Of a stretch of DNA of 64,000 nt, positions 30,001-50,464 are shown in pieces. A model generated the notes under the pieces. It made no database searches. It was not told the DNA's origin and saw nothing but the letters and a program-made list of their open reading frames with translations. Source of the DNA: Holothuria leucospilota (taxonomy: Eukaryota); the NCBI GenBank assembly GCA_029531755.1, contig CM055969.1:23751285-23815284 (forward strand). The letters run 5' to 3'. Within the stretch, counting starts at the first letter, position 1; every line of letters starts with the position of its first letter. A program made the translations under genes and the position numbers.

Positions 30001-32571
30001 TAATAATGTCAACTGTAAATCTGAAAAACGTTCTGTCATTTCATTTAAGGGGCAACAGGCTAAATGATCCCCCCCCCCCTCCATCCATGACTATATGTCT
30101 GAGGGATTGTACTGTAGATGAGTAAAGGCTGCTTCAAGTTTCCAAATTTTCACATGCTATAAAGATAAAAGAACCATATATGGTCATTCCTTGCTCTTAC
30201 AGGCCAATCACAGACAAAGCTTAGAGTTGAACAGTGTTCAACTTTTATAGCTTTATAGCGCTATACTGATCTATGAACCAGCCTTAATAACACTGTGTAC
30301 GTGCAATCAATATTATAAAATGACTGATATTAGCCTTGGCCAGAAACATCCACAAAGCAGATTTTATTTCAGTATTATATTAAATGTTGTAAAGACTTAT
30401 TTTTAAAACAGAGTTGTTCTTATGACCCAGAAGCTCAATCCCCCCCCTTCCCCTCCCCCTCCCCCTCTCACACTCTTATCTCTCACAAAGGTTTGCTTTA
30501 CAGTGTAAAGTAAGAGGTAAGCAGATTACCTTTAAGATAAATTCTGGATCAAAATCTATTATTTCTGAAGCTGCTGCAGAAATGTCTACCCTATTAGCAT
30601 TTTCAGCATCATGAAAATCTGCATTTCCAATCAGCGAAGCACTCACAGAGTTGATGAAATTTTGCTACAGAAAGAAAAAATTTCAAAGCAGTTATTTAAA
30701 ATTTTATACTGTACCCAACACACACACACACAACACACATAGCATATAGAGAAGTACTGTAAATGTTCACCACAAAATGCCTTCCTGTTAATTATTACAC
30801 CATGGCAATGTAACAAAAGTTCTCAAAAAAAATTACCCACTTCCATTCAAAAGGAAGCCAGGGCAAGAATATGACAGTGCCCTGTAGTTACAGGGGGTAC
30901 AAAAAATTATCAGGGGAAGTCCCTGAAATTTTGATCAAAATTTGATCTGATGTTACGACAGTAAGTGAAATGAGGGAAAATTTTGAATTCGACAGCCACA
31001 ACATAGTGTTGACGTATGAAATTCATACTTTATGGCCAAACTCTTCCTCAACATGGCCAAATTCAGGATCTGCTACTGTATACTGTACCTCCATCATTGT
31101 AGGGAAGAATATGTCATGGCCAAATGACTACTTTTCATGCCCAAATGGCCATTTTTAATGTTAAAAATAAGGCCAAATTGGCAATATTTGGCCATAAAAA
31201 TGGTCAAATGGCAGCCCTGCTACTAAAAGACATGGACAGCCACAAGGATACAAATACTGGTGGGTGCAACTAATACACAACTGTACATTGTATTCTTGAC
31301 AATGACATACTGTACTGTATGTATGGTGCAACAATTCCAACAATTGAGCATTATGAATGAACAGATTTACAATTACACATAACTTGCTCTACTATTACAC
31401 CTATTACAAAGCCTCCTAAAAAGTTATTTAAAAGGAAATGAGAGGTGAGAAGAGTTAAGAATGTTGTTTTATTTCCTTTTTTAAAATAAATTTTTAGGAG
31501 GCTCTGTAATAGTTGTAATAATAGAGCAAGTTATGTGTAATTGTAAATCTGTTCATTCATAATAGTGTATTGTTGGAATTGTTGCACCATATGTTATCAT
31601 CAAGAATACAGTAAAAACAATTGAATAGTATTCTAGAATGTGAACAATTTGTCATCAACACATGTCACATGATTAAAACAGTTAAAAAGGTTACATATCA
31701 TTCACAAGCAATGCATTCAGGTAACTCCAATGGGGGAAGATGGCTGTGCCACTTTTGCCCTCAGGATATCTTCATGCATATTTGCCATACTGTGCTTTCT
31801 TAATCCTCTTCCCCCACCTCCTGCCTCAACAACAAAAAGTCCCATACACCTTTATACTGAATTTTTACAAACCTTTTGTTTCTGGAACATCCAAGCTGAT
31901 TCCTCTTCCAGCTTTTCTTCATCTTCTTGCAACTGGAGCTTTTCAAATGTATTCTCATCCTTTTGACTAAGGTCATCATCTATCACCATAGATAAGTCAT
32001 ACTCCGGGTACGCAAAGTCAGATGAAATGGTCCGCTCCCAATATGGAATGGCATCAAGGCCAATCTCCTGCTCTGTCCATCTCTCCGTCGTACTTGCGGT
32101 TCCATGGTGGTGGTGATGAGAGCTAGTTTTAAGGGCATGACCAGATCCAAATTGTTCCTCACTACCAGCAAGCAAGCGTTTCTTACTTGCGCTTGTCTTC
32201 TGGCTAATCAATGTGTCCCCATATGATGAAATCTGAGGAGTGCTATCTAGAGAACTGGAAGGAGAGTACTTTACAGCAGCCTTTCGTTTCAGGAGGAGTG
32301 GTCGAAGTGAAGAGTCTAAAAGCAAAGGGTTAGTCAGTCTTGCAGCTTTGTAGGTGGAGGATGCCTCTCCTTTTTCCCCCACAGAGGCAGTTGAGCCTTT
32401 CTGGGACAAGAGTGAGCTCACCTTAAGTGATGAGCTCTTCAAAAGTTTGTTCTCTGTTGAAGCTAAGCCCAGAGATCCCTTAGACTTCAGTGAAAGTAAG
32501 GGTGACCTCAAGGATGAAGTCAAGCGGGGGTTGGACAAGTTTTTACTTCTGAGATCCATGTTTAACACCAC
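1..32571 (-). CDS. TEP1: TEP1-like (telomerase-associated protein 1 family) multi-exon gene with TEP1_N-like repeats, TROVE, RGG box, DUF4062 and NACHT NTPase. The start codon is at 32571 and the 3' part (post-NACHT, expected WD40 region) runs past the window start
   Basis: Translating the minus-strand exons in order gives several recognisable modules. N-terminal: LTSSLRSPLLSLKSKGSL-type repeats. TROVE-like: QNFINSVSASLIGNADFHDAENA, VALYTRKELNIRTTANFLLAFASYHKECRPF...LPSDWIEVAEIY, RMKLPTPETWETQVSLKGNKAETWETLI, KLPFMAMLRNLRNMIAAGISQKHH. DUF4062: VFISSTFKDMHGERDLLTRYVFPELR...VDLRWGVTEEQ, CDYFIGILGERYGFVPE. NACHT: VLTGQQGCGKSAFM (P-loop) and YVILIDGLDELEPS (Walker B). All exons have GT..AG boundaries with polypyrimidine tracts. 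The family assignment comes from recalled motif knowledge, not a database search. Confidence 0.7.
370..804 (-). CDS. TEP1: TEP1-like exon (post-NACHT). The 3' boundary is uncertain, with a possible donor near 370; otherwise the frame stays open to 248
   Basis: Acceptor aattctgcag| at plus 805-811. It encodes GFFSKLADPHGNGLLEGAQLRGISELPYHLTQAGLFHELKSVLCNLHYICACCRLGIAPHLLDCYHVAGQVVNPSRMYLREMEKFTSLTDVKTYSKFVSKCLHLIGQCPALVWQEAINEPSASIVSSDASKALDDLNRGGL... Confidence 0.55.
1259..1364 (-). CDS. TEP1: TEP1-like exon
   Basis: Acceptor ttttgatacaag| and donor TGGCAG|gtaaga. It encodes SRLRIGSNLILEAITHRYLRGTGADLRVQMHILLA. Confidence 0.55.
1612..1868 (+). mobile_element. MITE family A, copy 1 (~257 bp, TIR cctatagagggatttc...), inside a TEP1 intron
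   Basis: Its termini cctatagagggatttcatgtaacgtcac and gtcacgtgaaagaaatccctctatagg are inverted. It is the reverse complement of 48919-49144. Confidence 0.65.
2030..2215. repeat. Minisatellite, ~62-bp unit x3 (cttgcctagccctccctcacctgtac.ctacccctg...)
   Basis: Direct repeats are visible in the sequence. The ORF track shows the repeated peptide MASLLPSPPSPV. Confidence 0.7.
2924..3056 (-). CDS. TEP1: TEP1-like exon (NACHT-associated helical region)
   Basis: Acceptor tttttatgcag| and donor GGGATG|gtatga. It encodes VSGKLKALSHTVDALLQEIISRLEKEYDDKMIKELLVLLICARDG. Confidence 0.65.
4074..4253 (-). CDS. TEP1: TEP1-like exon (NACHT, sensor region)
   Basis: Acceptor aaattttcag| and donor AATCAG|gtgaga. 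It encodes SVIIVVSCGENKECYKALQRRDNVSVFNLGPLDILDKSEMVRKILGVYRKQLDESPFNNQ. Confidence 0.75.
5888..6026 (-). CDS. TEP1: TEP1-like exon (NACHT Walker B)
   Basis: Acceptor tttctttcaag| and donor CCAGAG|gtgagt. It encodes NLMNKLPKFLDQASQMVSQEKYVILIDGLDELEPSHQAQSMEWLPASVPE. Confidence 0.8.
7264..7429 (-). CDS. TEP1: TEP1-like exon (NACHT, between Walker A and Walker B)
   Basis: Acceptor ttttgtcttcag| and donor GATTACAA|gtaaat. It encodes AALKERFVEAHSSYNYFTHFVGATAGSSQLLNVLTRICWTIKLTFNLFMHVPEDY. Confidence 0.6.
7939..8121 (-). CDS. TEP1: TEP1-like exon (NACHT P-loop / Walker A)
   Basis: Acceptor ttttccttcatctcag| and donor TTCATG|gtgagg. It encodes VSQREVLEEEAEHHRALMDTYTSVFVGRKSQLIKFTEMMEKEAGRIFVLTGQQGCGKSAFM. 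Confidence 0.8.
9072..9198 (-). CDS. TEP1: TEP1-like exon
   Basis: Acceptor ttaataaag| and donor ACAAAG|gtaagt. It encodes YSCYWGGLVDGKPITAGLEEFGERVLNNLWTKISCDFDTK. Confidence 0.55.
9811..9923 (-). CDS. TEP1: TEP1-like exon
   Basis: Acceptor atatcacag| and donor AACAA|gtgagt. It encodes RDVPGQWKKNFKAESDASHSKLMNLKDGILKSGFEVFN. Confidence 0.55.
10365..12925. mobile_element. Non-autonomous TIR DNA element (~2.56 kb) with 70-bp terminal inverted repeats, within a TEP1 intron
   Basis: 10365-10434 (ctacggaagcgtagaagggacactgcattgacgagttaccgacatggcaaaatgacaaaaatctgcaaattg) is the reverse complement of 12856-12925 with one mismatch. The interior has no long ORF. It holds poly-G/C tracts plus segments similar to 52190-52370 and 50340-50420. 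Confidence 0.7.
12590..12900. repeat. Subterminal tandem repeat (~110 bp x ~3) inside the TIR element
   Basis: Repeated gacgagatactagcaactgtg...cagcatctcgtcaaaacgtcatttttctgaattttgtcat units. Confidence 0.65.
13047..13283 (-). CDS. TEP1: TEP1-like exon (DUF4062 C-terminal half)
   Basis: Acceptor ttgtgctttcag| and donor TTGA|gtgagt. It encodes SVEVCLSEVAHCDYFIGILGERYGFVPEFYPAMLGSKFEWLAEYPSGRSMTELEVQQALQDHADDQGAFFYIRDSGFI. Confidence 0.7.
13818..13877. repeat. (TACAA)n microsatellite, about 11 units
   Basis: tacaatacaatacaatacaatacaatacaat run. Confidence 0.9.
14290..14466 (-). CDS. TEP1: TEP1-like exon (DUF4062 N-terminal half)
   Basis: Acceptor caattttcag| and donor CATAA|gtgagt. It encodes WRTVRVFISSTFKDMHGERDLLTRYVFPELRSRARRLLLNIVEVDLRWGVTEEQTKQH, the hallmark DUF4062 motif FISSTF.DM..ER. 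Confidence 0.75.
14673..14738 (-). CDS. TEP1: TEP1-like exon (short, precedes DUF4062)
   Basis: Acceptor ttttacag| and donor CGAAG|gtaaca. It encodes LEKRIETTAVHFRIPEGPPVR and joins in frame to the next exon to give ...PPVRRWRTVRVFISS. Confidence 0.6.
15025..15061. promoter_or_regulatory. Perfect 24-bp palindrome gtgtgttatactagtataacacac followed by the CRE octamer TGACGTCA (15054-15061)
   Basis: Read directly from the sequence. Intronic, so any function is unknown. Confidence 0.4.
15773..15929 (-). CDS. TEP1: TEP1-like exon
   Basis: Acceptor tttcttcttaacag| and donor GTCAAT|gtaagt. It encodes VWNKFSSEEHPNDIYIAGFSDQILRFIAERGDTGQLNHVENIDKCYSLKDVN. Confidence 0.5.
16171..16278. repeat. Near-perfect hairpin or foldback mini-element (44-bp arms, 20-bp loop)
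   Basis: 16171-16214 is the reverse complement of 16235-16278 with one mismatch. Confidence 0.75.
17646..17791 (-). CDS. TEP1: TEP1-like exon
   Basis: Acceptor cggtcattag| and donor TTTG|gtaagt. It encodes FDTIVILAEGWMVRSSQAENLRQSIATYRHLLNRNMLFVNIALKNNAL. Confidence 0.45.
19452..19516 (-). CDS. TEP1: TEP1-like exon (short)
   Basis: Acceptor tctgtag| and donor CAGGAG|gtatga. It encodes NMLSGISSYHSMNSVLLEVIRNRQE. Confidence 0.45.
19560..19830. repeat. Interspersed repeat family copy, related to 56860-57110
   Basis: Shared blocks agcgactgtt..ctttccacaatt...aaaaagaact.ttcttcaaaaggaaattctct.tgaccca.ga.tgatgt...cttccttcccag.atg.attgt.ta.c. Confidence 0.5.
20411..20498 (-). CDS. TEP1: TEP1-like exon (short)
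   Basis: Acceptor gtggtttag| and donor TGTAT|gtaagt. Open frame WCEMGRHFGLRRDDLERENAYGLFYPYMY. Confidence 0.45.
21534..21696 (-). CDS. TEP1: TEP1-like exon
   Basis: Acceptor tttcactag| and donor ACG|gtaaga. It encodes VLEVGVLLGLMCKYSCEDCSFLLCDYKGHEEVELEEGTILDNMESVIQLATV. Confidence 0.55.
21953..22135 (-). CDS. TEP1: TEP1-like exon
   Basis: Acceptor cttcaacag| and donor AAATCT|gtaagt. It encodes CEYNYDAELLARYRKALDTAVKIATAYNVKPIRGKTLILCSLTEMMWQSCTKARGLGKPKS. Confidence 0.6.
22722..22852 (-). CDS. TEP1: TEP1-like exon encoding an RGG/RG box, (GR)n run
   Basis: Acceptor ctttatag| and donor CCGTT|gtaagt. It encodes VREETSSAANYSSGYRGRGRGRGRGRGRGRGGSGAASWWKKKVEKP. Confidence 0.6.
23675..23870 (-). 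CDS. TEP1: TEP1-like exon (TROVE, FMAMLRNL motif)
   Basis: Acceptor cagataatag| and donor GAGA|gtaaga. It encodes KLPFMAMLRNLRNMIAAGISQKHHTWVIKKLTDEGSVTNSKQFPFRFFSAYQVLDDMEEEREKAE. Confidence 0.7.
24590..24858 (-). mobile_element. tRNA-derived SINE with a tRNA-Lys-like head, in a TEP1 intron
   Basis: The minus-strand head gcatggtcaagtggttagagcatccgacttgcagccagaaggtctggggttcaactcctggccagg has tRNA A/B-box-like segments. Its anticodon stem is not paired, so it is not a functional tRNA. Confidence 0.55.
24968..25125 (-). CDS. TEP1: TEP1-like exon (TROVE, KLPTPETWE motif)
   Basis: Acceptor ctttttgtcag| and donor GATAG|gtgagt. It encodes YPEDLEAFYKSRLPGTWESDRAGKRMKLPTPETWETQVSLKGNKAETWETLI. Confidence 0.7.
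25649..25859 (-). CDS. TEP1: TEP1-like exon with a Lys/Asp/Glu-rich linker followed by FNLKELIRKLHITDPVEHVMCLIGKK
   Basis: Acceptor ttatgtgttgcag| and donor near GGCAAAA|gtaatg. Long open frame in the ORF track at 25640..25936 (-). Confidence 0.55.
27040..27210 (-). CDS. TEP1: TEP1-like exon (TROVE module)
   Basis: Acceptor gtgtggcag| and donor CTGG|gtaagt. It encodes KDMLTLSSVHSVICFDGFNFFHTQTFHDDSISFGALPSALRKVMIAKFPEFDKYQLG. Confidence 0.6.
27292..27440 (-). CDS. TEP1: TEP1-like exon (TROVE module). The 5' boundary is approximate
   Basis: Open frame ...QMLEAIEMQFSPPNRENFAAFFELIEFCLWQISLMPENALIRVHDTCEDG ending at donor GATG|gtaagg. The acceptor is not resolved. Confidence 0.45.
28130..28670. 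repeat. Inverted-repeat structure, MITE-like
   Basis: Internal inverted segments 28215-28235 against 28405-28425 (caggccttga.ttttg), with ends that share catggtcag in inverted orientation. Confidence 0.35.
29640..29801 (-). CDS. TEP1: TEP1-like exon (TROVE module)
   Basis: Acceptor tctgtctccag| and donor TTG|gtatgg. It encodes VALYTRKELNIRTTANFLLAFASYHKECRPFLKKYFQKSIALPSDWIEVAEIYL, which matches the Ro60/TEP1 TROVE signature (R..anfllA...h..crP...lPsDW). Confidence 0.7.
30530..30664 (-). CDS. TEP1: TEP1-like exon (TROVE module, N-terminal part)
   Basis: Acceptor ctgtag| and donor AAG|gtaatc on the minus strand. It encodes QNFINSVSASLIGNADFHDAENANRVDISAAASEIIDFDPEFILK. Confidence 0.65.
31300..31600. 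repeat. Hairpin-forming MITE in TEP1 intron 1
   Basis: 31300-31400 is the reverse complement of 31500-31600 (arms ~100 bp, loop ~100 bp), for example gaatgaacagatttacaattacacataacttgctctactattaca against tgtaataatagagcaagttatgtgtaattgtaaatctgttcattc. Confidence 0.7.
31874..32571 (-). CDS. TEP1: TEP1-like exon 1 (first coding exon). ATG at 32571, N-terminal Ser/Leu-rich repeats, poly-His, acidic tail
   Basis: The six-frame track shows a 239-aa open frame MVLNMDLRSKNLSNPRLTSSLRSPLLSLKSKGS...HHHHH...EDEEKLEEESAWMFQKQK. The donor CAAAAG|gtttgt lies at plus 31872-31877, which is revcomp. Confidence 0.65.
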
Positions 32572-34204: not shown

Positions 34205-35000
34205 GTTCTTTTACTGCACTTCATCTAACACTTTGTGTTTTGTGAGAAAGACGGCATGGATATAGGTGCCCAAGCTACTATCATCTGTAATTGCGGGCTG
34301 TAAAGTGTGACTGGACAATGTTGTCTGCATCAAACATTATTTGCACTTCATCTTACAGTGCGTGTTTTGTGAGAAAGACGGCATGGATATAGGCGCCCAA
34401 GCTACTATCATCTGTAATTGCGGGCTGTGAAGTGTGACTGGACAATGTTGTCTGCATCAAACATTATTTGCACTTCATCTTACAGTGCATGTTTTGTGAG
34501 AAAGACGGCATGGATATAGGTGCCCAAGCTACTATCATCTGTAATTGCGGGCTGTGAAGTGTGACTGGACAATGTTGTCTGTATCAAACATTTTTTGCAC
34601 TTCATCTTACAGTGCGTGTTTTGTGAGAAAGACGGCATGGATATAGGTGCCCAAGCTACTATCATCTGTAATCGCGGGCTGTGAAGTGTGACTGGACAAT
34701 GTTGTCTGCATCAAACATTATTTGCACTTCATCTTACAGTGCATGTTTTGTGAGAAAGACGGCATCGATATAGGTGCCCAAGCTACTATCATCTGTAATT
34801 GCGGGCTGTGAAGTGTGACTGGACAATGTTGTCTGTATCAAACATTTTTTGCACTTCATCTTACAGTGCATGTTTTGTGAGAAAGACGGCATGGATATAG
34901 GTGCCCAAGCTACTATCATCTGTAAACGGCATGGATATAGGTGCCCAAGCTACTATCATCTGTAATCGCGGGCTGTGAAGTGTGACTGGGCAGTGTTGTC
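34205..35000. repeat. Satellite with a 127-bp unit, about 6.2 copies
   Basis: gcacttcatcttacagtgc.tgttttgtgagaaagacggcatggatataggtgcccaagctactatcatctgtaattgcgggctgtgaagtgtgactggacaatgttgtctgcatcaaacattatttg recurs with a 127-bp period. The ORF track shows the repeated peptide MIVAWAPISMPSFSQN. Confidence 0.9.
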
Positions 35001-36136
35001 CGCATGAATATGAGTGTAAAAAAAGGCCATTTCTTGTTTCCTGTGGAGAAGTGTCCTACTGTACTGTACATTGTATTAGTATATGTATAGTTTATTGTAT
35101 ATGCCACTGAGCATTCCATGTCAGGCCCATGCCGAAGTTACGCCAAGAAAAACAATAGAAAACATAAGGAAAATGCCAACTCCACGCCGAAGATCTTCAG
35201 ATCGGAGTGCATGGAATGCACCCTGGTGTATATGTAATATAACGCTGAGAACATCTGTGGCCTTGCCTAGTCTCAGTTCCACAAGCGTCCGGAGGGGGAA
35301 TGGGGGCACCCAATTACGCTTTTTTCAGGAGTAAAAATGTCCCCTGGTTTGGTCAATTAAAAGGTTTGCTCTCCCCCCCCCCGAGAAATCAAAAACTGGA
35401 AAAAAAAACTTGAAGAAAAAATAACATCAACATTTTTTTATGATATTGCTAGAAAATTTCCAGAACATGAGCTTTCAAAATAGAAAATAAAAAGATGCAA
35501 CTCACAAGGCTTGGGAAGTGCCATTTTAAGCGATCTGGGAGACATTTCGGCCAAAATTTTCTTGGTGCTTTGCGCCAAACTATGGTGGCGCTATGCTTAG
35601 ATAGTTTGCCTAAATGTTTTGCCCCCCTGGCAAATTCCTGGCTACAGCGCCTGTAAAAGGCACCAACATTTAGCAATTAAGCTCTTTTCTGGGAGTAAAA
35701 AGTTCCCCTGGTTTGGTCAATTAAAAGTTTTGCTCTCCCCCCCCCCCCCTTAAATATTTTTCTGAGGATGCCCATGCCCCAGTTATCATTATTACTGCAT
35801 GCAAATTTGTACAGTAACTTACAGAACTTTTTGTACCGTCTGAACCATGACTAACTTTTGTAATGTGGCATGACAATTAAGCAAGCTCAAATTGGGGAGT
35901 CAGCCAATTACACAACAGGTTTAATGACATGAACAGAATTAACGCCTAGAGTAGGCATGGGCACAGGCCTACACTGCATTTTGTCTGTTGTGTGTCATCA
36001 TTGGTGATGTACCTTTTGCCTAGCTTAGTGAAATTAGGGTACCTAATTAGCCTAACCAATGTTAACACAATACTCAATAGGCTCCTAGGCCTAGGTCCAA
36101 TATTATACAAATAATGAATGTTCATGAGTGAGATCA

Positions 36137-37929
36137 GGGTTGGGAAGTTACGAGTTACAAGTAACGCCGTTACTGTAACAAGTTACATTTTGTGTAACAC
36201 AACTGTGTAACGAGTTACATTAACATCTGTAACAGAGCAGGTACTGTAACTAATCAAAATTTTGGGTCAAAATAACTGTAATGGACTCACTTTTTGGTTC
36301 CGTTGCCTTTCGTTAAAATAGTCACAATAACCACAAACTACATTTTCTCTATAAAAGTAAAAGAAAAATTTCAAACTGATGGCAGTTTGATGGTGCCATG
36401 TTGTCGGATACATTTATCAGTCATCTCTTTTATCGTCTTCATCCCCACCCAACATTAAATTTTCTTCACGATTTATAATCACAAGCTGTTATGTACAGTA
36501 CAGGCTTGCACAGTCACTTGATTTTCCATTGGTGAGGTATTGGACATGCCTCTTTCTCCATATAGTCATTCTTGTACAGTAACTCAGTTAAAACTTAGTT
36601 TATGCACCGAGTCATTAATAAAACAAAACCATATTTTCTGTCCATGAGGTGTATTTCAAAATTATGCAATTCAATGTAAGATACTAAATGATCCTGGGTA
36701 AGTTTTTCCCTGTGTCAGTGACCCAGTGTTGTAACGAGTCACTCAATTTCGCAGTCGAGTCATTAACTACTTTCAACATGACTCGAGTGGAGTCAGTGAC
36801 TCAGGCTTCGACAAATTCTTTTTTCACTACTTGTCCATCGGGCAAGCTGTTCTCTTAGTCTACTTGTCTGCATGAATATCTACTTGACCACTTTTAATAT
36901 GCCTTTAAACTCCTTTGTGGAGGAGACTTCGTAAGTACTTGCCCGGCGTGCTATGAGATTGAACAATGCAATTGCCCGAGTAACTTTTTACTTGTTCCGG
37001 ACTGTCGGGCGGGGGATTTGTCGAAGCCTGCAGTGGCTCGAGTCATTGTATTATTTCTATGAGGAAAATTATGATACAGTTGTTAAAGTCATTTCCCTCT
37101 TGAAAATTAGTGGCTCGAGTCATGACTCGTTACAATATTGCAGTGGCCTGATTTTTTCATGCTTTCCCAGACCTTCAGAGGACAAAGTATATTAATACAG
37201 TATTACACATGAGAACGGTTTAACTTCAGACAAACACAGCCAAACACTACACTGGCTTGTTTTAATCATTGCCTCTTGTGACTTAATACCAAAAGCCGCT
37301 GTCTAATCGGAGATCAAGTAAATTCCGATTTCCTATTTCCGATTTGGACCTTTACTTAATCTCCTGGGGATGGGGAATATATCCACCCACGAAATCAGAT
37401 GAGGGATACTGTGCACTACACGTAGCTACCGGTATATCCCCCCTGAAATCAACCTGACAGATTCAGAAATCATGTATAAAAGTTAACTTTGCTATTAAGA
37501 AAACTTCTTAAGAGAACAGAAAAATTTAAAGATCTGACAATTGTCATAGTATCACGTTGAAAGGCCTGGAAAGGGCCATTTCCGATGACCGGGGGGTGTC
37601 TTTGGCCAAAATAGTGGTGCTCCACTCAGACAGTGCCACTGACTATACTTCCCCCCCCCCTCCCGGCCCACTTTCAAATATGGATTGTGGCACATGGTAT
37701 CTGTTACCAGCCCCCCCCCCCCCATCTTGGATGGAGTTGACTGTATCTTCAAGTGAAAGTAACTACTGTAGTTGCTTTTGAAAGGTAACTAATTACTTTT
37801 CAGGCAAATGTAATTGTAACTAGTTACTTTTTCAATATTGTAAAGTTCTAGTAAATGTAACAAGTTACAAGTTTATGGAAATAACTGTAATTATAACGAC
37901 TTACTTTCAAAATGTAACGGGCACAACCC
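36137..37929. mobile_element. Non-autonomous TIR element (~1.8 kb) with gttac/gtaac-rich terminal inverted repeats. It contains a nested ~430-bp sub-element (36718-37150) with cagtg..tgtaacgagtca TIRs
   Basis: The start gggttgggaagttacgagttacaagtaacg pairs with the reverse complement of the end ...gtaacgggcacaaccc. The nested element starts cagtgacccagtgttgtaacgagtcac and ends gactcgttacaatattgcagtggcc. Confidence 0.55.
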
Positions 37930-39649: not shown

Positions 39650-40560
39650 CTAGGCCACAGGCGCCCCTTAACATTGTACAGTATACCATATACTATGTAG
39701 TATATATAGACGGAAAGGTATGTCACAAATCTCCTAGCTCGAACCACAGGCAGTTCTAGCGTTATATAGTACATACATATATATAAATAGACAAGGTAGA
39801 GCACTTCTTCCACACAAAGGCGTTCAGTAGCCAGATTTGGCCTATTTGGCTATATATGCACGAGTACATGGCCAAGTTAGTAAACAATTTGCCAGTTCGG
39901 CCAAAGCATTTGAGGATTTGGCCATATTAGTGCATTGCAGCCAAATCTGGCTACTGAACGCCTTGGTGTGGAAGAAGTGCGCTACCTTGTCTATTTATAT
40001 ATATGTATGTACTATATAACGCTAGAACTGCCTGTGGCTCGAACAAACAACTTTAAGTTTCTTTCATAATTCCTGCACTTTTCTCACCAAAATTGTCTAC
40101 ATCGAGACTGTTGGTCATAAGGTACCTGAAAGCAGTTCTTTTTCCCGAATAATTTCACGTGGCATTGTCTGAAGGATGAAATTTCGATGAAGTAACAGTT
40201 TGAGGATGGTAGCTGCTGATAGGAGAGCATTCAACACTTCCACACTATGTAATGAAATACTCCTAAAATATTCTCTAAAGTTCCCTTAACTTTCAAGATT
40301 TCTTTTAAATTTGTTAATTATGGTTTACTTTTTATTATTACAAATCTTGCAGATATCTATTAGCATGAATATGAACGATTTTTGAACAATGAATTTCATA
40401 AAATTTGAAAAGCTTTAGAAAAGTGGAAGGGCTAGCATTTCCTACAAGCATTTGTGGCAGTTGAACTGTAGCTGTTTCACAGTCTTCAGCTGCTACAAAT
40501 GCTCATATAGTACATAGTATACGGTATACTATACAATGTTAAGGGGCGCCTGTGGACTAG
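39650..40560. repeat. Foldback-type element with nested inverted repeats. Inner arms (39735-39840 and 39935-40040) are about 105 bp and perfect; outer arms are 39650-39700 and 40505-40560
   Basis: cgaaccacaggcagttctagcgttatatagtacatacatatatataaatagacaaggtagagcacttcttccacacaaaggcgttcagtagccagatttggc and its exact reverse complement, separated by about 95 bp. Confidence 0.8.
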
Positions 40561-41454
40561 GCTACCCCATGTTGGACAACACACGACCATGTGATAGCCT
40601 AGTGCCAAATGTAACCCATAGCATGTGACCACTGACCAATCCTCCAATCGGCGCCGTAGGCCTAGGCCAGAGGAATATGGTCAGTGTAAATATTTAGGCT
40701 AGGCCTAATATCAGTTCACATTCTGTACCTAGGCCTAGGTATATGTCAGTTTACTTGAATTTGTTCCTAGCGTTAGGCATTGGCTTAACTTATATGCCCA
40801 ACACTCAACAGCTAATCCTTCCTTCCTTCCATGCATACCTGCAGGCTGCACACTGACACTGGCAGACCCAATTGTTTGAAAGGGCCAAGTGCTTGATCAG
40901 TACATCGACGAAACTGAGTTCAAAAGTACTGGAGTAAAGTCTGGATAGCCTTGCTAAGTTGCTATGCAAGCTTCTTCGTTTGAGCTCGTCTTCCTTGTCC
41001 TCGCAGCTGTAACCGGCCGATGAATTGATAGTTTAAGCATAAGTACTGTACTTGTTACAAATAGCCTACAACTGTTTTAAGTCAGTTACACCACTCAGTG
41101 CAAATGTTGCAGGAGATTCCAGGATTTACACCCAGTCTCCCAGCTGGTGCCCGGACAACCAGTTTTTATACGCACAGCCGAAAGGTGCATCAGTACTTCC
41201 ACAAGTTAAACCCAATTTACAGGAAAAATTCAAACATTTCCTTTGCCTTATTACCTTGCATTTAAATTTCAAGTCCTCATATTCAACTTTTTAAGACATT
41301 TAAAAGAGCATTTCAGTACTTTTTGTCGCTAATAATTTTTGGTAAAAAACATTTCCAACCCTTTTCGATGTAAAGTATTCATCAATTTTAAGGAATTTTT
41401 TTACAAAGTGGAAGTGAAGCAATTGCAACATTGGTCGCAATAGCTGGCTTTAAT

Positions 41455-42280
41455 TAATCATTGCACTCGTCACCCCAAAGTATATTTTTGGTGTGGGTAC
41501 ATCAAAATTCTCAGGTGGTTACTGCTCTTTGACTGACATCAAAGTTTGAAAATTCAAAAGAGGCAGAGTAGCTCATATTCCACAGAATGCAGAGAGAGAG
41601 AGTGCTTGGATTACACTTTGTAGCCTTGTATGCTCACCAGGACATGGCCTGAAGGCTGAAGCAATAAAATAGGTTTGTATCTGCACAAGGAGGAGCTTTA
41701 CACAGTTATGGGAGGAGCTACAAGTTGGGAGAATTGGAACAGTCTGGGATGATGAGAATTGCCCTTCAAAGACAGTCATCACCTCAAAGTAGGCCTATAT
41801 TTTTAGTGTAGGGGTATAAAAATTCTCAGTTGGTGACTGTTCTTTGATGGATATCAAAGTTTGAAATTTTGAAAGAGTGCAGAGATGCATTCCACACAAG
41901 GCAGAGAGAGTGTTTTTATTACATTTTATAGACTAAGTTGTTTGTTCACCAGGACATGGCCTTAAGCAATAAAACAGGTTTGTTCCTGGAATTTCTATCA
42001 TCCCAGACATGCAGTTCCAGTTCTCCCAACTATGCAACTTCTAGCTCCTCCCATAACTGTATGAAGTTCTTCCTTGTGCAGGAATAAACCTGTTTTATTG
42101 CATGTCCTGGTGAGCATACAAGGCTATAAAATGTAATAAAGCACTCTCTCTGCCTTGTGTGGAATGTGAGCTACTCTGTATCTTTCAAATTTTCAAACTT
42201 TGATGTCAATCAAAGAGCAGTCTTCAACTGAGAATTTTGATACCCCCACACTAAAAATATACTTTGGGGTCATGACTGTC
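41455..42280. repeat. Foldback repeat family. One copy spans 41455-41790, and a full hairpin copy at 41790-42280 has ~230-bp inverted arms
   Basis: 41800-42000 is the reverse complement of 42040-42275, and the same sequence recurs at 48415-48725. The ORF track shows mirror-image ORFs. Confidence 0.8.
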
Positions 42281-42650
42281 TGTCTTTAAGCTAGCCATAC
42301 ACTACACGACTTAGCACACCGCAACCCAACTCGATTGTCGGGTCGCCAACAGTCGTGAGGTGTACAAGAGTTTAAGACGTGACTGCGATTGGCAGTTTTA
42401 AGCAGTGTTGTAACAAGTCAAGTCACTGACTCGAACTCGAGTCGCATATTTGACTTGACTTGACTTGACTTGGTCATCAGCCAAAATGACTTGACTCGAG
42501 TCTGGAACCCTAAATGACTTGACTTGACTCGAGCCATCACCTAAAATGACTTCACTTGACTCGGACTATTGAAGACTCGAGTCAGGGAAAGTAACTCGAG
42601 TCTCCTTCTGCGACTCGAGTCCTTTGATGCGACTCTGATGTTTGTAAACG
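42265..42650. repeat. Left arm of the large inverted repeat, containing (gacttgacttg)n and gactcgagtc subrepeats
   Basis: 42265-42400 is the reverse complement of 48290-48420. The partner arm is at 47990-48420. Confidence 0.75.
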
Positions 42651-45579
42651 TACCCAGTTTTGGACTGTGCACCTCCTTATCAACTCTGATGGGAGTGGTT
42701 TAGTCCTCACTAAAGGCATGTGTATAGCTGGTCGCCGACAGCTCCCTATATATACACGGTCCTTACAACGACCCATTGGAAATCCGGAGTCTTCGACCAG
42801 CACAGTGCTGGTCGAGATTGATTTTTTCCTTATAGCAAAGCTAAGACCTTAAGTCCTTATTTTCTGCAGTGCAGTAACTTTTCCTTTCCAACTCTGTAAC
42901 TAATATTGAAGTTGTTTTTGATCACTTTAAACCTCTGAAAAGTTCCGAAAATTTGAAATAGGCCTAAAATCATTAAAGTGGACCTAAAGTCTAGAGTTAC
43001 AAGAATATATATTTTAGAGGTTGGAAAATGAATTCCATTCATCCAACTCCCATCTTCATAGCTTATTCCGTTGCTGAGATATAAAATATTGAAATTTATT
43101 CACCTAATTTGAAAAAGTCAATTGCGCAATAATTTGTGATGCCCTTCTTGTACAACTCACATTACCCGCTTTTGTTTCCTTATGAAATTAATATGTCGGT
43201 TTATATGACCTTGAAACATTTACCGTTCCCTTGCATAGCATGTTGTATGGAGAGGGCATTAATAGCCAAGTCACCCTATAACAGTAAGAAAGTGATCCCA
43301 TTTTGGCACAAGGTGCAGTGGCTTTCGAGAAAACAAAGAAAAACAAGACCGTAATTTGAGTAGTACAAGAATGACATCACAAATTATTGTGCAATCTACC
43401 ATTTCAGATTGAGTGAATAAGCTTAAACATCTTATATCTCAGCTCAGGAATGTCCTGTGAAGATGGGAGTTGGACCATCTGGATCCATGTTTCAAGCTTT
43501 GTAACATATATTTTTGAAATTTTAGACTTTAGGTACACTTTAACTTTGTTACTTTGTAAAATTTACTGTAGGCTGTAGCGTTCGATATATTTGTTGATAT
43601 CAGAATGCCGTGTGCGTAACATTGACATCACAAAACATTTTACTACTGTAGTTTCTGTACATACTCATGACAATTGCCTCTGCAAACATTCCATACTGAC
43701 GTAAGAATGTAGCTTATTAGCATACTGATGTAAACAACGTTCCTTAGTCACACAGTAAATATTACGGCACGAAAAAGTTGCTAATTTCATTTCAAGCTTT
43801 TGGCCCTTTCAAAAAGATCTCAGTGATCAAAAACAAAACTGTAATACTCCTGTAAGAACTGGAGAAAAAAGTCATGGTAGAAAATTAACATTTTACGTCC
43901 AATATTTGCTGAGAGAAGAAAGTCAATTTCAACCATTATAAAGACGGCCGACCCCCCCCCCCCTCTCTATTTTCAGAGGTCGTTGTAATTGGGGAAAGTA
44001 GGAATTTTTTTAATGCAATAAACAATTATACTGCATTTAAAACTAAAGAAAAACAATAAGCAACAATTAAACACCTCAATATGTTTTCTTCGGCGCGCTT
44101 CACCCGTTTTAAATATTGTTTTGGGATTCCGGGTTACTTCCCGTAGAACATCTCGCTTGTCGTATTTTCGTACAAACTAATTCCATTATCATTGAAACCC
44201 TTGATTTCCCCATGGCCTTACGCAGTGGAGGGAAAGTTTCCCCTCCCCAGAAATTTTCAAAGCAAAATTTTTATCACCATCGATCTGTGTAAATTTACCG
44301 ACTTTTTGAAGATTGTTTAGATGCAAGTTGTAAGGGGCGAGAAAGTGCCATTTCCGGTACTGTAATATGAGACAGGCGCTTAGCGAAGGGGGTGCAAGAG
44401 TCCTCTCCTTGAGGGTACTTTTCTTAGCTTTTTTATTACTCATATCGCTAAAAGTCTAAAAAATGCGATTTTTCAGCGGGCTTCGCGCGCACCTCTCTTG
44501 AGTTGTAGATCTCACATTTATAAAATAATTGCTACAAAGTCCCGGCCTTCGGCGCCGCTTGGCAGTCCACAAGGGTTTGCCCCCTCCCCACACACACTTT
44601 CAGACATCAAATCCCCCGTCGTAGTGGCCATTTTTATTCGTTATTGACGGAGAGAGTTTATTTCCGAGAGTTGCACAGTGCTACTGCTAGGTCGTTGACT
44701 ACTTCGTTCGATTAAAGCAGTGGTTCCCAACCTTTTCCAGCTCATCGCCCCCTTTCACCATATAGGGGTGGGCAAACGCCCCCCCCCCCCCCTTCCATGT
44801 CCCTTCCAAGTACTACTATAAATGAAACGAAAAAAGTTGAAGCACATGTTGAAATGAAAGGTGCGAATTCATCCTTTGCAGGTGTGGGCCCAAGGGAGTA
44901 CAAACAGACAAAAGCGGTACCGAGTCTTCCTCTTGTGATGGCAAGTTGAAAACCCGCGATTAATTTAGAAAGGGTGTGAAGCCTTAATCGGAGTCAAGGG
45001 TGAAGAAACTTTTTCACTAAAAGAGAGAAAGATTTTGGGGATTCCACAGTATGAAGTGTTTCCCATGGGCAGGGAATCTAGAGGCCCTTCTTAGCTGCTC
45101 TGGGGCATTGCCCTAGTGGGGGACCAGCGGCGAAGTCCCCTGAAGTTCTGCAGTGTTCACGAAATTGTCAGCACGAGAACTATAATAAAACATTTTTAAT
45201 CACACTTTGACCATTTGCCCTTGAGTGGTAACTAATTGAAGGTTTCTTTCATTCTGCGGTTTGCTTGTCTTGTGGGTGGGAAGAAGGATGATAGTGGCTG
45301 CATGGGGCTTTGGAAGACGTATGTTACTCAAGGTGTCCTACACCGGCAATTATTACAGATCGCCCAAATTCTCACTCCAAAATATAGCATTTTAAAAGAC
45401 ATTTTAATACCCTACTTCCTTTTGCATTGCCAACGTTTTCTGTTATATTTCAATTATCTACAATTGTCGATTATGTCAGTATGTGCTTCTACGAACAGCA
45501 AGGCAAGAGTTACATTTGAGATTTAATTGGCACGACAACTTTGACCTATGGACCCCATAGCCCCCCCCCTTCACCGCCA

Positions 45580-45900
45580 CTGATAAAGGCAATGGGGTCC
45601 TCACAAAGAATATTTTTGAATTTCAACACTGTTTGATGCGATTTCCTGGCAGCTAGCAGATGAGATAATTCACAACTTTGTAGTGACCCTAAAGAATGAA
45701 TGTTAGACATACCTGACTTGTTAACTCGAGCTATTTTATTGCATACTTATCTGAAAGTTCAACTAGAGGAAAACACTTGGTATCTTCTGCAACCCCGTTT
45801 AAATTTAGTTTAGTATAATCTTATTTCTTCAAATGCTCTCACTGCCGCCCCTTGGCTCTTATCCCCCTCAGTTGCGAAATAGCCTTCAGGAGGCGATGCC
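45580..45900. repeat. ~330-bp dispersed repeat, copy 1 (copy 2 at 46905-47245)
   Basis: Shared blocks tggggtcctcacaa.gaa.atttttgaa.t.caacactgtt..atgcg.tttcctggcagct.gc.gatgagataattcac.aactttgtagtga.cc.aaagaa.gaa.gttagac.tacc.gacttg. Confidence 0.7.
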
Positions 45901-46904
45901 ACCTGATAGGAACAACTGATCTGTTAGTAAAGATACGAGTACAAAACTCATTGACACATACTTCCAGCTACTGTTTGCTAAATGAAGTTAACCTTTTACA
46001 ATCCGTTTATCAAACTTTGTAAGATTATGTCTTCATTACACATATTATATTGTGGAGAATAACAAAACGAGGGAAGTATTTACGTAGCTGGGAATCATTC
46101 ACGTAAAACAACATGAAAAAAAATCTGATGAATACTATTTCCAGAATTCGTGGTGAGGTTAGGAATGATAAAATCCCTGTCTTTCCTGCTTTACTAATGA
46201 ACGAAATAACAAAATTATTATTTCAAAACTTAATTAATAATTTTTTGCAGATTTTTAAGGGATGCGGATAATCTCTAATTACAAATTTGTTACAACCTCC
46301 AAGTTGTTTCCTGCAAGCTAATACACATGATTAATTTGACAGCTCTTGCCACAAATCCACTTTGCCTTTTGCCAGTAAGTTACATCGTGTCTTCAAGGAA
46401 AAGACAGGGAGTTTAATAGGGCAGACTTCCTCATTTCAAAGGCTAAGAAAGCAAAAGCAACATTTTAACATCTCCCCTTATTTCAATTTCTCCAACCACA
46501 AAAAGCTTTCTATTTCGGCAGGAGCAATCTCCCATGGGCTGCACTCCTTGGCTGATCGGTCACTTCAAACATATTATCTGGTCTTAGCTCTAGTACTCAG
46601 CCGAGCTATTGTTATATTACTTATGCTGCTATAGGCCGTGTGTATGAAACAATGTTATAGTCCAAACCTCAGTATCCGAGACCGAGACTATCCCTTCCGG
46701 GACCAAGACACCGCTTCATAAACCGGGAACTTTTCAACGGAAGTTCTAATCGACTGTTAATAAAATTAGTTGTATCATAGCGCTTTGTTCTGCAACACAG
46801 GCCATCCGTAAATTCAAATCTCAAAATGCTGATATTGCATGAAGTGTTGCCTTTCACAATTTTCATTGTGATATCGTTCATGACTGTGTAGTAGCGTACA
46901 CAAC

Positions 46905-47245
46905 TTCATCATGGGGTCTTCACAAGGAAAATTTTGAAATGCAACACTGTTAAATGCGGTTTCCTGGCAGCTGGCGGATGAGATAATTCACCAACTTTGT
47001 AGTGAACCAAAAGAAGGAAAGTTAGACCTACCCGACTTGATGATTCCATTTTATCTCCAATTTATTGCATACTAATTTGAAAGTTCAGTTAAAGGAAGAT
47101 ACTTGATATCATTTAAAGCCTCGATTAAATTTAGTATCTCATTTTTGCAAACGCCCCCCTGCCGCCCCCTTGTCTCTGATCGCCCCCCCCAAGTTGCAAA
47201 AATGACCCCAGGGGCGAAAACGCCCCTGTTGGGAAACACTGAATT
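46905..47245. repeat. ~330-bp dispersed repeat, copy 2. Ends gttgggaaacactg, inverted with respect to cagtggttcccaac at 44722
   Basis: Direct repeat of 45580-45900. The inverted termini 44720/47240 may define a ~2.5-kb TIR element, though confidence for that is low. Confidence 0.6.
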
Positions 47246-47379
47246 GAAGTGTATTTTACACCATGGCCTCGTCATCTGTGGATTCTAGGGCGACGACATC
47301 TAACTTTACACAACTGCCTCCAGGGCACCCTTGGGCAATGTGCACCTGTATTTGCCCAGTGCTTTTTAAGTGTTGTTGC

Positions 47380-47560
47380 CTTTGGACGTGGTGTTGCCTT
47401 CGGGCGTGGTGTCATCCTCGGGCGTGTGGTAGCCTTTGGGCGTGTGGTTGACGGGTGGGACTTTGTTTTGGGGTGGTTTGTGGTTTTTGGGCTAGGGTGT
47501 TGTTTTGGGGTTGGTTGCAGTGGCAGTTTCTTAATTTCAGTAGTAACAAAGACTCTTTTG
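47380..47560. repeat. GT-rich minisatellite (ttgccttcgggcgtggtg-like units)
   Basis: Direct repeats. The ORF track shows VAFGRGVAFGRGVILGRVVAFGRVV. Confidence 0.7.
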
Positions 47561-47989
47561 TTCCCTGTTGCATAGTGTGTATAGTTTTTTTTGGCATTGT
47601 GTTTGTGATCCGACAGGGTTTTTGTTTGGGTTTGGGGTTCTCCTTTAGTTTCTCAGTGCCTGTTTCTACGTACTTCAAAAAGCTAACTTTAAGACTTCGT
47701 CGCAAAGTGAAACTGAGATTGTGCCACGGCCAGCAGATATACATTAAACATTGTTTGCTTGAGTAGTTTTAGCATTCCGGTGTTGGGCGCAAGCTGCGTG
47801 TGGTACCGCATGTACAGCGTACTCCTGGCAAATTGCGTGTAAAGTTATGTGAAAACAATGTACCCTTAGCATACCATAGTAAAAGACTGCAGTCAGTGAC
47901 AGGTACACTTCAGAAGAGGCAGAAAGCAGAAAGGAACCAGTTGTCTCAAGGTCACACCAAATGTGATTATATAGGCCAAGTGTGACTTG

Positions 47990-48420
47990 CGTTAACTTGA
48001 AGCTAGACACATCAACTGACTCGAGTTGACTTGACCAAAATGTCTGACTTGACTTGCCTTGGCTTCTGTCATGACTTGACTTGAAAATGTGCTTGGCTTA
48101 ACTTGACTTGACTTGAGCAATGTGACGAATGACATGACTTGACTTGCGACTCGACCACCGTTGACTTGACTTGACTTGCGACTCGACCTAAGGGTGACTC
48201 GTTACAACACTGGTTTTAAGTCACGACGACTTCAGTCGGGAAGAATCAACATGTTCGTTCTTCCCGACTGAAGTCGGCGCGACTTAAAACTGGTTCTAAA
48301 ACTTCCAGTCGCAGTCATAAACTCATACACACTATACGACTGTTGGAGATCCGACGATCGAGTTGAGTTGCGGTGTGCTAAGTCGTGTAGTGTACGGCTG
48401 GCTTAAAGACAGGCAGTCAT
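47990..48420. repeat. Right arm of the large inverted repeat, a partner of 42265-42650. It carries a 64-bp palindromic insertion at about 48236-48299
   Basis: Reverse complement of the left arm. It also contains (gacttgacttg)n subrepeats. Confidence 0.75.
48236..48299. mobile_element. 64-bp palindromic micro-insertion flanked by a TTAA duplication, present in the right arm only
   Basis: The right arm reads ggttttaa[gtcacgacgacttcagtcgggaagaatcaacatgttcgttcttcccgactgaagtcggcgcgac]ttaaaactgg. The left arm at ~42395 reads continuously cagttttaagcagtgttg. Confidence 0.6.
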
Positions 48421-48725
48421 CACCCCAAAGTATATTTTTAATGTGGGGGTATCAAAATTCTTAGTTGGTGACTGCTCTTTGATTGACATCAAAATTTGAA
48501 AATTTAAAAGATGCAGAGTAGCTCACATTCCACACAAGGCAGAGAGAGTGCTATTATTACATTTTATAGCCTTGTATACTCACCAGGACATAGCCTTAAG
48601 CAATAAAACAGGTTTATTCCTGCACAAGGAGGAGCTTTATACAGTTATGGGAGGAGCTAGAAGTTGCATAGTTGGGAGAATTGGAACTGTCTGGGATGAT
48701 GAAAATTACCCTTTAAGGCATGGGG
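48415..48725. repeat. Foldback repeat family copy, the same family as 41455-42280
   Basis: catcaccccaaagtatatttttaatgtgggggtatcaaaattcttagttggtgactgctctttgattgacatcaaaatttgaaaatttaaaag..., nearly identical to 41460-41780. Confidence 0.8.
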
Positions 48726-48918
48726 TGTAAACAATGGGTTATCTAAACTTGTTTATTCTCCCTGTTCCTTTGATCCCTTGGGTGCATTTGAGCAATGAGT
48801 AAATTCTGCTATTTATTGACTAGAGACCAAAGTCAAAATGGCGGAATGTCCCATCCATGGAGGCAAAGCTAGGTTCAAACATAGAGCAGGATATAGGAAC
48901 AATATCCTGATCTATGTT

Positions 48919-49144
48919 CCTATAGAGGGAGTTCAGTCACGTGACTTTAACCAACTAGACGCAATTTTGAAGGCAAGATCGCGCGTCTTTTTGGTTTTGA
49001 CGGGCACGCGTCCATTGTGTCACAGTAGTATCTATGGTTACACCGTGCGAGTGAGCTGTAAATTTGCTTACTGCGTGTGTGTTTTGCCTTTCAGTGCGTG
49101 GGAATCCATTGCGCGTGACGTCACATGAAATCCCTCTATAGAGG
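48919..49144 (-). mobile_element. MITE family A, copy 2, in inverted orientation relative to 1612-1868
   Basis: Reverse complement of copy 1, with TIR cctatagagggagttc...gaaatccctctatagagg. It abuts a palindromic junction at 49125-49160. Confidence 0.65.
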
Positions 49145-49244
49145 CTTTTCATATGACGTCATAATACTCCCTGGCGCCATGTTGGAGTACATGTTACTTC
49201 GTAGTACACCACACTCGACGTACTTGCTCAATGAATGTGTACAA

Positions 49245-49440
49245 ACCGCGTATAGAGCTTATGCACCTACGTCACGTTTCTCTATTTTTCCATCCAGGCG
49301 TACGTTGTGCAACAATTGTTACTAAGGTGCTGTCGTGAGCGCGTATCTTTAACACACCTACTACGTATGGCAGTTCCATCCTGTAAGCCAAATTGAAACG
49401 CGCTGACGTCACGTGCATAAGCTCTATATGGCACTACGAT
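49245..49440. repeat. Inverted repeat arm (~195 bp). Its partner is at 50465-50660
   Basis: gcgtatagagcttatgcacctacgtcacgtttctctatttttccatccaggcgtacgttgtgcaacaattgttactaaggtgctgtcgtgagcgcgtatctttaacacacctactacgtatggcagttccatcc... is the reverse complement of 50465-50660. The arms flank the 49975-50445 MITE. Confidence 0.8.
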
Positions 49441-49974
49441 ATTATTGTAAAGAAGCCAGTGCTCACTGGCAGTTTAGGCATAATCCTACCGCCCTAAGTT
49501 TCTAAGGGCCAAGTTCTCAATACTATATGCTCTAAGGGCCATGTGATGGCATGATTTTGACATAAATGCATAGGTGCTAGAAAGCAGAGAAAAATCTCTC
49601 CCCCTGATTCGTTTCATTTTGCAAGTTACTTCACTTAACATGTAATGACAGTCGAGGTGTGGATAAACTGAAATAGCAAGGCTATAAAATAGGTCTGTCA
49701 TGAAGAGAGAAATTTAGGGAGTAAAGAACGAAAAAAAATCATGAATAAAAGAATATGTTCAAATATGTACAATGTTCAAATATACCGTACGAAAAGGGTG
49801 AAAATGAGAAAGGCATTACGAGCAACATAACAAGTCTAAGGCACCAAATAGATCTCCGCCATCAATAAATCTCTTAAATATTTCTTAATCTGGTAAGGTA
49901 AAGTTAGTAGGGTCTAATAGATGAAAATGAGTACACGTATTTTTAAAGATTTTCTACAGACTGATACTAGTTGA

Positions 49975-50445
49975 TAACAGGGTGGCTCCAGGATTTGCCC
50001 GAGAGTGGGCCCATTCTCCCCGACAAGGGGCCAGCAGCCCAATTAAAAGCCCCGACAAAGGCGATGAGTTGACAAAAGGATGTGGAGCACAAAATTTCGC
50101 GCGCCGAAAAATATTTGGCTGTGTGTACAAAAATTGAAAATTTGGGACTTTTCTTAAAGAAATTTTGAAAAGTGTGGATTTTATGGAAGGAAATTTGAGA
50201 AGTTTGGGGTTTTAAGGAAAATTGGAAAGTTCGGGGTCTTTACTTAAGAATATGCCCTTCCTATGAGCAAAATCAAGCAGATCGTCGGGGCGACTGAAGA
50301 TTACTGGGATCCTATTTTATCGTACGGATTAAGGCCCCCGGACAAAATTGGAAAATTTCCCCGACGGTGGACAGCCTTCTCCGACGGGGATCCCCTGCCC
50401 CCCCCCCCCCGGGCGTCACCCTTGCTTCATACTCTTGCTACCTTT
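49975..50445. mobile_element. MITE family B, copy 1 (~470 bp, TIR caggggtggcgccagg-like, with an internal poly-G/C tract)
   Basis: Shares more than 80% of its blocks with 51513-51965, for example ccaggatttgcccga, gccccgacaaagg, ttgaaaat.tggga.ttt, gcccttcctatgagcaaaatcaagc, and ccccgacgg.g with a poly-G run. Confidence 0.7.
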
Positions 50446-50464
50446 ACCTGTAATCAGCATACTT

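Follow-up and report, generated by a model that had tools for sequence, protein, structure and literature searches.

A probable non-autonomous hAT-type element nested inside an older palindrome in the DNA of Holothuria leucospilota

[quoted passage not shown] The superfamily as a whole is recognized by 8-bp duplications and terminal repeats of 5-27 bp (PMC3517528). Its transposition requires about 150-200 bp of each end, and the BED domain of Hermes binds AAGT subterminal repeats; Hermes, Tol2 and Ac provide the functional precedent for short subterminal repeats as transposase-binding sites (bioRxiv 10.1101/2022.09.16.508221). Foldback elements, such as Drosophila FB, Galileo, Tetris and the sea-urchin TU, are characterized by long inverted arms that contain repeats, by scant or absent coding sequence and by hairpin potential (PMC3573991, PMC4079207). 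Features of both kinds are present at 41-49 kb of a 64-kb stretch of Holothuria leucospilota DNA (contig CM055969.1, forward-strand positions 23,751,285 to 23,815,284; hereafter the window, numbered from its first base), in a region that a first-pass annotation had described as one composite structure of about 7 kb. Here, we report that this region very probably consists of two unrelated nested elements, namely a non-autonomous hAT-type element of 5.8 kb, designated H1, and an older palindrome in which it lies.

The limits of H1 are given by its inverted termini, by the duplication GTTTTAAG on either side of it and by the homology of its ends to a family of small elements (Table 1). The two 18-bp terminal repeats match at 17 of 18 positions, with the consensus CAGTGTTGTAAC[A/G]AGTCA, and the window contains just three occurrences of CAGTGTTGTAAC, at 42403 on the plus strand, at 48212 on the minus strand and at 36724 on the plus strand. 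The last of these is the left terminus of a second, small element of the same structure, H2, as the first-pass annotation had recognized when it assigned a common terminal motif to a small element at about 36.7-37.15 kb. Duplications of 8 bp were met in six copies of the family, with all eight positions identical in H1, L005 and L006 and seven of eight in H2, L003 and L008; the chance of at least seven matches out of eight at a fixed position is about 4e-4 per element if base frequencies are equal.

When 42403-48220 is deleted in silico, 41990-42402 and 48221-48708 join to a continuous, spacer-less palindrome of 901 bp, the arms of which match at 404 of 461 positions (87.6%) with 0 nt between them, and the alignment crosses without interruption the one copy of GTTTTAAG that is left. 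Folded as DNA, these 901 nt form a single hairpin with 412 pairs and an energy of -441.8 kcal/mol, compared with -95 +/- 7 kcal/mol for shuffled sequences. In its present state, the long inverted repeat between the two sides, 41990-42400 against 48297-48707, was recovered by both the inverted-repeat scan and self-BLAST at 88.6% identity over 420 columns.

Judged by its sequence, H1 is a Ds-like non-autonomous element of the hAT superfamily and thus a known kind of element. This class is indicated because an 8-bp duplication, short terminal repeats starting with CAG and repeat-rich subterminal regions are together the DNA hallmarks of hAT elements; the terminal repeats of H1, which are 18 bp long and start with CAG, have the form expected of the superfamily (short, starting CAG, or YARNG). 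H1 also shares with the Ac/Ds type the lack of coding capacity and the restriction of family likeness to the ends. Across the six complete frames of 42403-48212 (stops masked), no Pfam family was found at E <= 1, for which reason H1 is regarded as non-autonomous, and the earlier statement that nothing between the arms is coding is borne out. The hAT transposase domains, that is, the BED zinc finger, the RNase-H-like core and the C-terminal dimerisation domain, are absent from these six frames, as expected for a non-autonomous copy. With 5,810 bp, H1 is not a MITE, since elements of that kind measure less than about 800 bp; its relatives H2, L003, L005, L006 and L008 measure 103-427 bp. A literature search with the terminal repeat string returned no relevant record.

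Table 1. Coordinates of the repeat features in and around H1 and of its small relatives. Positions are those of the window; for the external loci the length of the element is given.
Feature	Position or length	Strand	Basis and remarks
H1, mobile unit	42403-48212, 5,810 bp	+	terminal inverted repeats, 8-bp duplication, end homology to small family
Left terminal inverted repeat CAGTGTTGTAACAAGTCA	42403-42420	+	
Right terminal inverted repeat CAGTGTTGTAACGAGTCA	48195-48212	-	as read on the minus strand
Target-site duplication GTTTTAAG, left copy	42395-42402		8/8 identical to 48213-48220
Target-site duplication GTTTTAAG, right copy	48213-48220		
Left subterminal region	42421-42635	+	three GACTCGAGTC palindromes and runs of the GACTT(G) pentamer; motif counts, TRF; homology to L005, L008, L010, L011 and others ends here
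Right subterminal region	48014-48194	+	GACTTG runs, oriented as on the left
H1 interior	42636-48013		mosaic with further repeats; non-coding; without homology to L003-L011
Left palindrome arm	41990-42402	-	A unit 41990-42278 and b 42279-42402
Last 31 bp of left arm, which the insertion placed right of H1	48221-48251		continuous alignment after deletion; inverted-repeat scan, 0 nt between arms
Right palindrome arm	48252-48708	+	b 48252-48414 and A unit (unit extends to 48725)
A copy (~300-bp unit)	41464-41778	+	
A copy	41779-41989	+	unit positions 1-211
A copy	41990-42278	-	
A copy	48415-48725	+	
H2, small element	36724-37140, 417 bp	+	left terminus as in H1, right terminus with 2 mismatches, 8-bp duplication 7/8
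L003	103 bp		duplication GGCACTGG/GTCACTGG, 7/8
L005	427 bp		duplication CCTATCAG, 8/8
L006	201 bp		duplication CATGTTGC, 8/8
L008	294 bp		duplication TTTTTAAA/CTTTTAAA, 7/8
Hairpin-type repeats	15297-15474, 16171-16278, 31322-31591, 39739-40042		arms 46-121 bp, 77-98% identity, spacers 13-98 bp

Several points weigh against this assignment. The superfamily was assigned from DNA hallmarks, as no autonomous partner or transposase turned up in the sequences searched; the length of 5.8 kb far exceeds that of the complete copies (103-427 bp) and is above the '<4 kb' usually quoted for hAT elements; and the six target duplications match neither the Ac consensus (nTnnnnAn) nor the Buster consensus (nnnTAnnn). 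A choice between Ac and Buster on the basis of these duplications was dropped, as the six yielded no consensus. Moreover, H1 differs from Ac/Ds-type elements in its subterminal repeat, where a pentamer, (GACTT)n, runs with unusual regularity and is accompanied by the 10-bp palindrome GACTCGAGTC.

The short repeats GACTT(G) and GACTCGAGTC crowd about 200-235 bp at each end of H1, and all 10 copies of GACTTGACTTG and all three of GACTCGAGTC in the window fall within 42403-42650 and 47990-48212, which agrees with the runs of subrepeats previously noted in each arm. On the plus strand, GACTTG is present in seven copies at the left end, 12 at the right end and three in the interior of about 5.3 kb, its complement in two and zero copies at the left and right ends, respectively, and GACTCGAGTC at the left end only. 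By analogy with other hAT elements, these subterminal repeats are presumed to be putative transposase-binding sites. Read on the other strand, the pentamer GACTT becomes AAGTC, which contains the AAGT core recognized by the BED domain of Hermes, and, as in Hermes, the repeats are dense near the tips and arranged differently at the two ends. However, the likeness to Hermes and hobo is restricted to this 4-base core, from which we purely infer any binding, and the terminal repeat sequence of H1 is one that we take to be unlike theirs. The AAGT core may, by the same analogy, serve as a lead on how the ends of H1 are recognized.

Relatives of H1 were sought by scanning metagenome contigs for the terminus and then TCGAGTC. 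Nine short contigs, L003-L011 (JAAUXV01... and JACSEG01... records), were found, all of which share the left end CAGTGTTGTAACAAGTCAAGTCACTGACTCGGACTCGAGTC and carry the 18-bp terminal repeat of the H1 family, and the flanks of which are all different. Four of the nine are complete, with the right end GGGTGACTCGTTACAACACTG and 8-bp flanking duplications. The two sequences that make up the palindrome arms, A and b, were looked for in the nine loci, and none contains either. Since the ends recur in nine loci with differing flanks and without A or b, the GACTTG-rich ends are the subterminal regions of a dispersed family and are independent of the long arms. The first-pass annotation had proposed that its single-element view would fall if other copies proved to be independent insertions of a common MITE with different flanks, and this is, in spirit, what these copies reveal. 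BLAST of the window against the external loci detected homology only at 42401-42635 and 48014-48212, the very parts of the supposed arms that bear the satellite, where the left end of H1 corresponds to the left end of the family (83.6% to L005) and the right end to the right end of the family (78% to L008); an external copy, taken in one orientation, matches the left and the right end of H1 without being reversed. Locus L009 carries a kinesin motor exon at 235-516, and L007 a sulfatase C-terminal (sulfatase-like) domain at 216-947. Because of the kinesin motor exon, L003-L011 are considered eukaryotic nuclear DNA; a related animal was sequenced in the samples behind them, and the contigs are animal host DNA. 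Among viral contigs, the terminal-repeat 18-mer gave one isolated match, L002, which by our estimate is the number expected by chance.

The small element H2 is flanked by CAGTGACC/CAGTGGCC at 36716-36723 and 37141-37148. An internal inverted pair, GGCTTCGACAAATTC at 36806-36822 and GATTTGTCGAAGCC at 37013-37030, was spotted in it by eye and may represent an internal hairpin or another small element nested in H2.

The interior of H1 contains a nested palindromic, MITE-like element at 42973-43543, with 209-bp arms of 77% identity, a 153-bp spacer and TTAA at both edges, and an inverted pair of termini, CAGTGGTTCCCAAC at 44718 and GTTGGGAAACACTG at 47241, which match at 13 of 14 positions and are flanked by GATTAAAG/AATTGAAG (6/8), so that 44718-47241 is possibly another hAT-like element nested within H1. 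As well, a direct repeat of about 330 bp is present at 45592-45919 and 46911-47242 (75%), the second copy of which forms the right end of the 44718-47241 candidate, and GT-rich minisatellites lie at 47370-47516, in agreement with the one reported between the arms. These structures bear on an explanation that retains the same nesting and differs in the history of H1, in which an L008-like element of about 300 bp was inserted and the 5.4-kb interior was added later by nested insertions, H1 itself never having moved as a 5.8-kb unit. That complete family members measure only 103-427 bp would fit such growth, as would the coverage of L008 from end to end by the two ends of H1 (654-774 corresponding to 42396-42529, and 757-961 to 48014-48219) and the presence of at least two interior structures, at 42973-43543 and 44718-47241, that resemble later insertions. 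However, these candidate insertions account for only about 3.1 of the 5.4 kb, and no clean junction with a duplication was found at 42635/48014. Furthermore, L009, L010 and L011 possess at least 0.4-0.9 kb of other internal sequence, and L010 shares the left end of H1 to 42635 and marginally to about 42840, with a score reached by one of 200 shuffles. We therefore regard later growth as a tentative alternative to the movement of H1 as one unit, with a real but minor share of the probability.

The palindrome that houses H1 is built from arms comprising an A repeat of about 300 bp and about 160 bp of b. To its left lie two tandem A units (41464-41989, plus strand), of which the first is full and the second is truncated at unit position 211; at 41989/41990, the truncated forward unit is abutted by the inverted A unit of the palindrome (positions 288 to 1), which sets the left limit of the palindrome and creates a second junction of the fold-back type, whose loop of about 77 nt (A positions 212-288) is single-copy. 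Among the A copies, those within the palindrome resemble each other most closely (94.7%, compared with 82-89.5% for other pairs). In the window, b is present in the palindrome only and the strong A copies are all clustered there, while b-like sequence upstream of the first and downstream of the last A unit did not exceed shuffles. Most likely, the palindrome arose by a local fold-back (inverted) duplication within the small A cluster, a step which we infer from this arrangement. Fold-back inverted duplications, produced by template switching or by repair of hairpin-capped breaks, share with this locus the spacer-less palindrome, the second inverted junction and the +,-,+ order of A units; unlike them, the host palindrome spans only hundreds of bp, and its arms have since diverged by about 12%.

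Alternatively, the 0.9-kb palindrome might itself be a mobile foldback-type MITE with arms of A and b, in which case the locus would be a transposon within a transposon. The window is rich in MITE-like foldbacks and often carries repeats of the hairpin type, 100-300 bp long and with short spacers; the four at 15297-40042 are unrelated in sequence to one another and to A and b. At 19845-20149 on the minus strand, weak collinear nhmmer matches to the A profile were also obtained (E = 0.012 and 0.077; best stretch GGAGAATTGCTACTGTCTGGGGTGA), which possibly mark a very old copy of A in an intron of a gene like TEP1 (telomerase protein component 1) and would suggest that A is, or was, dispersed. 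Nevertheless, no duplication is present at 41990/48708, the palindrome ends on the left at a break within an A unit that abuts another A copy, and the strong copies of A are clustered and b is confined to the palindrome. The b-core 21-mer had no match in viral and metagenome contigs, although that metagenome collection yielded the hAT ends nine times, and the A-core pattern was absent from viral contigs and prokaryote genomes. One match of the b 21-mer in a bacterial genome was rejected as chance, its flanks being unrelated and the match not extending, and a search for predicted proteins from other A/b copies with a chimeric query of stop-free frames gave no match. A mobile origin of the palindrome is thus rather unlikely, and a local fold-back duplication is preferred.

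At the centre of the palindrome, 48209-48295 forms a 78-nt hairpin. A search of Rfam with 41000-49200 returned only weak matches there that resemble microRNA precursors (MIR1432, 37.7 bits against a gathering score of 90, and mir-7131); a plant or animal microRNA precursor was rejected, as these matches are below threshold and probably reflect a generic resemblance among hairpins.

With H1 taken as a hAT-type element and the palindrome as its target, the history of the locus can be proposed as follows. A hAT transposase encoded elsewhere in the genome would, as hAT biology suggests, bind the 18-bp termini and the subterminal arrays of GACTT (AAGTC) and GACTCGAGTC, excise H1 and reinsert it at a target site opened by staggered cuts 8 bp apart, giving rise to the duplication of GTTTTAAG. 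The target would have been a pre-existing spacer-less palindrome of about 0.9 kb, entered 31 bp to the left of its symmetry centre. A hairpin-prone palindrome would in this way have become an inverted repeat with a 5.8-kb spacer, and the apparent 7-kb long-armed element would be the split palindrome together with the repeat-rich ends of H1. Targeting directed by hairpins was considered and rejected as unsupported, because in each of the other five copies the empty site, once reconstructed, shows no structure (z of -0.6 to +1.7, compared with -18.4 for the site of H1). Since these five sites lack excess structure, the palindrome as a target of H1 looks incidental. It would not be incidental if the insertion served as a stabilising spacer without which long perfect palindromes do not persist in this genome, if the family were drawn to hairpin or cruciform DNA, or if the A-b-b-A arrangement were an undescribed foldback element that makes no target duplication; we consider it improbable that any of these applies.

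The first-pass annotation had interpreted the whole of 41455-48725 as one large non-autonomous FB-type or long-terminal-inverted-repeat transposon, with arms built from foldback units and a (GACTTG)n satellite. In its favour, a 420-bp inverted repeat at 88.6% does bracket the interval, repeat-rich sequence lies just inside both arms, coding capacity is lacking and hairpin-type repeats are common elsewhere in the window. The four A copies, described as foldback copies, are likewise real, but the outermost units (41464-41778 and 48415-48725) are direct rather than inverted. The two sides are reverse complements only over 41990-42402 and 48297-48708, and not, as had been stated, over their full length; the satellite-bearing parts are inverted only over the 18-bp terminal repeat, and GACTTG lies on the plus strand on both sides, unlike the subrepeats of foldback arms. 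The first-pass annotation had assigned the motif CAGTGTTGTAAC to the arms' inner ends, but it occupies a central position in each supposed arm, where two kinds of sequence join. The perfect 8-bp duplication and the 18-bp inverted termini lie within the arms. No duplication was found immediately outside 41455 and 48725, where the first-pass annotation had suggested looking for one; the sole word in common is the 6-mer CTTTAA, which is at chance level, since some 6-mer is common to 42% of random window pairs. Neither do the pairs 41455/48725, 41464/48716 and 41990/48708 share any word of at least 7 nt within +/-25 bp. In addition, the satellite-bearing ends are present on nine other contigs without A or b. 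As regards a possible recurrence of the arms, b and the strong copies of A are local in the window, and no match to either was obtained in the external collections. The locus differs from foldback elements in that its long arms and its short tandem repeats come from different elements, that the tandem repeats are not inverted between the two sides, that the outer ends lack a duplication and that the arms are not known to be multicopy. A single foldback element is very improbable, and a target-primed palindrome, which had been offered as another option, found no support. What stands of the original description is the reality of the repeats, a genuine long inverted repeat around the region and a non-autonomous, non-coding DNA transposon within it; the repeats are divided between two unrelated nested elements, and the unit, its limits and its class are those of a hAT-type element at 42403-48212 inside the inverted repeat.

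Spacer-less palindromes and inverted duplications are a familiar artefact of long-read libraries, but it is scarcely credible that a collapsed repeat or a chimeric fold-back read in the assembly produced the inverted arms here. About 12% of their positions differ and several indels separate them, where a fold-back artefact would yield near-identical arms, and a transposon with an intact duplication breaks one of them asymmetrically.

The window is eukaryotic in character, with a GC content of about 0.40 and without long open reading frames. Exons of the TEP1-like gene lie on its minus strand, including an APAF1_C helical domain at 251-823 and pieces of a TROVE domain at 21938-22255 and 24915-25289. 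The APAF1_C exon matched only a Logan contig from SRR29906530 (93%); the best match of the TROVE exon, likewise among Logan or ENA contigs, reaches 75%, and its sole species-named match is an annelid (Ridgeia) protein at 68%. The 41-49 kb region is repeat-rich and non-coding and lies past the TROVE piece at 24915-25289, the TEP1-like exon with the highest coordinate found; because the gene is on the minus strand, the nested repeats are on its upstream side.

Other repeats were observed in the window. Just to the right of the H1 region, an inverted repeat of 178 bp with 96.6% identity (49251-49428 / 50479-50656), the termini of which start with TATAGAGCTTATGCACC, bounds about 1.4 kb, and the structure at 49251-50656 resembles a young terminal-inverted-repeat element. 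At 34215-35008, a unit of about 127 bp is repeated in tandem about six times, with 93-97% identity among the copies. A long inverted repeat at 59201-59822 / 60688-61309 (623-bp arms, 92.6%, 865-bp spacer) is adjoined by satellite-like arrays at 61307-63868, and a dispersed repeat at opposite ends of the window (48914-49141 / 1613-1873) is inverted and shows 79% identity over 261 bp. ARAGORN predicted a tRNA-Ile (anticodon TAT) at 58757-58831 on the minus strand, which could be a gene or a tRNA-derived repeat.

Taken as a whole, the nesting of repeats seen here, in the repeat-rich flank of the TEP1-like gene, is routine, and the region should be annotated as a non-autonomous hAT element at 42403-48212 nested in an older palindromic repeat instead of a 7-kb foldback element. 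As a substrate for inversion, the present arms, which are about 88% identical with a longest exact match of 42 bp and lie 5.8 kb apart, would be possible but at best weak, although the first-pass annotation had suspected a recombination-prone structure. Finally, the analysis defines a hAT family by the termini CAGTGTTGTAACRAGTCA and the subterminal repeats (GACTT)n and GACTCGAGTC, which can be used for genome masking and for the hunt for its autonomous partner.

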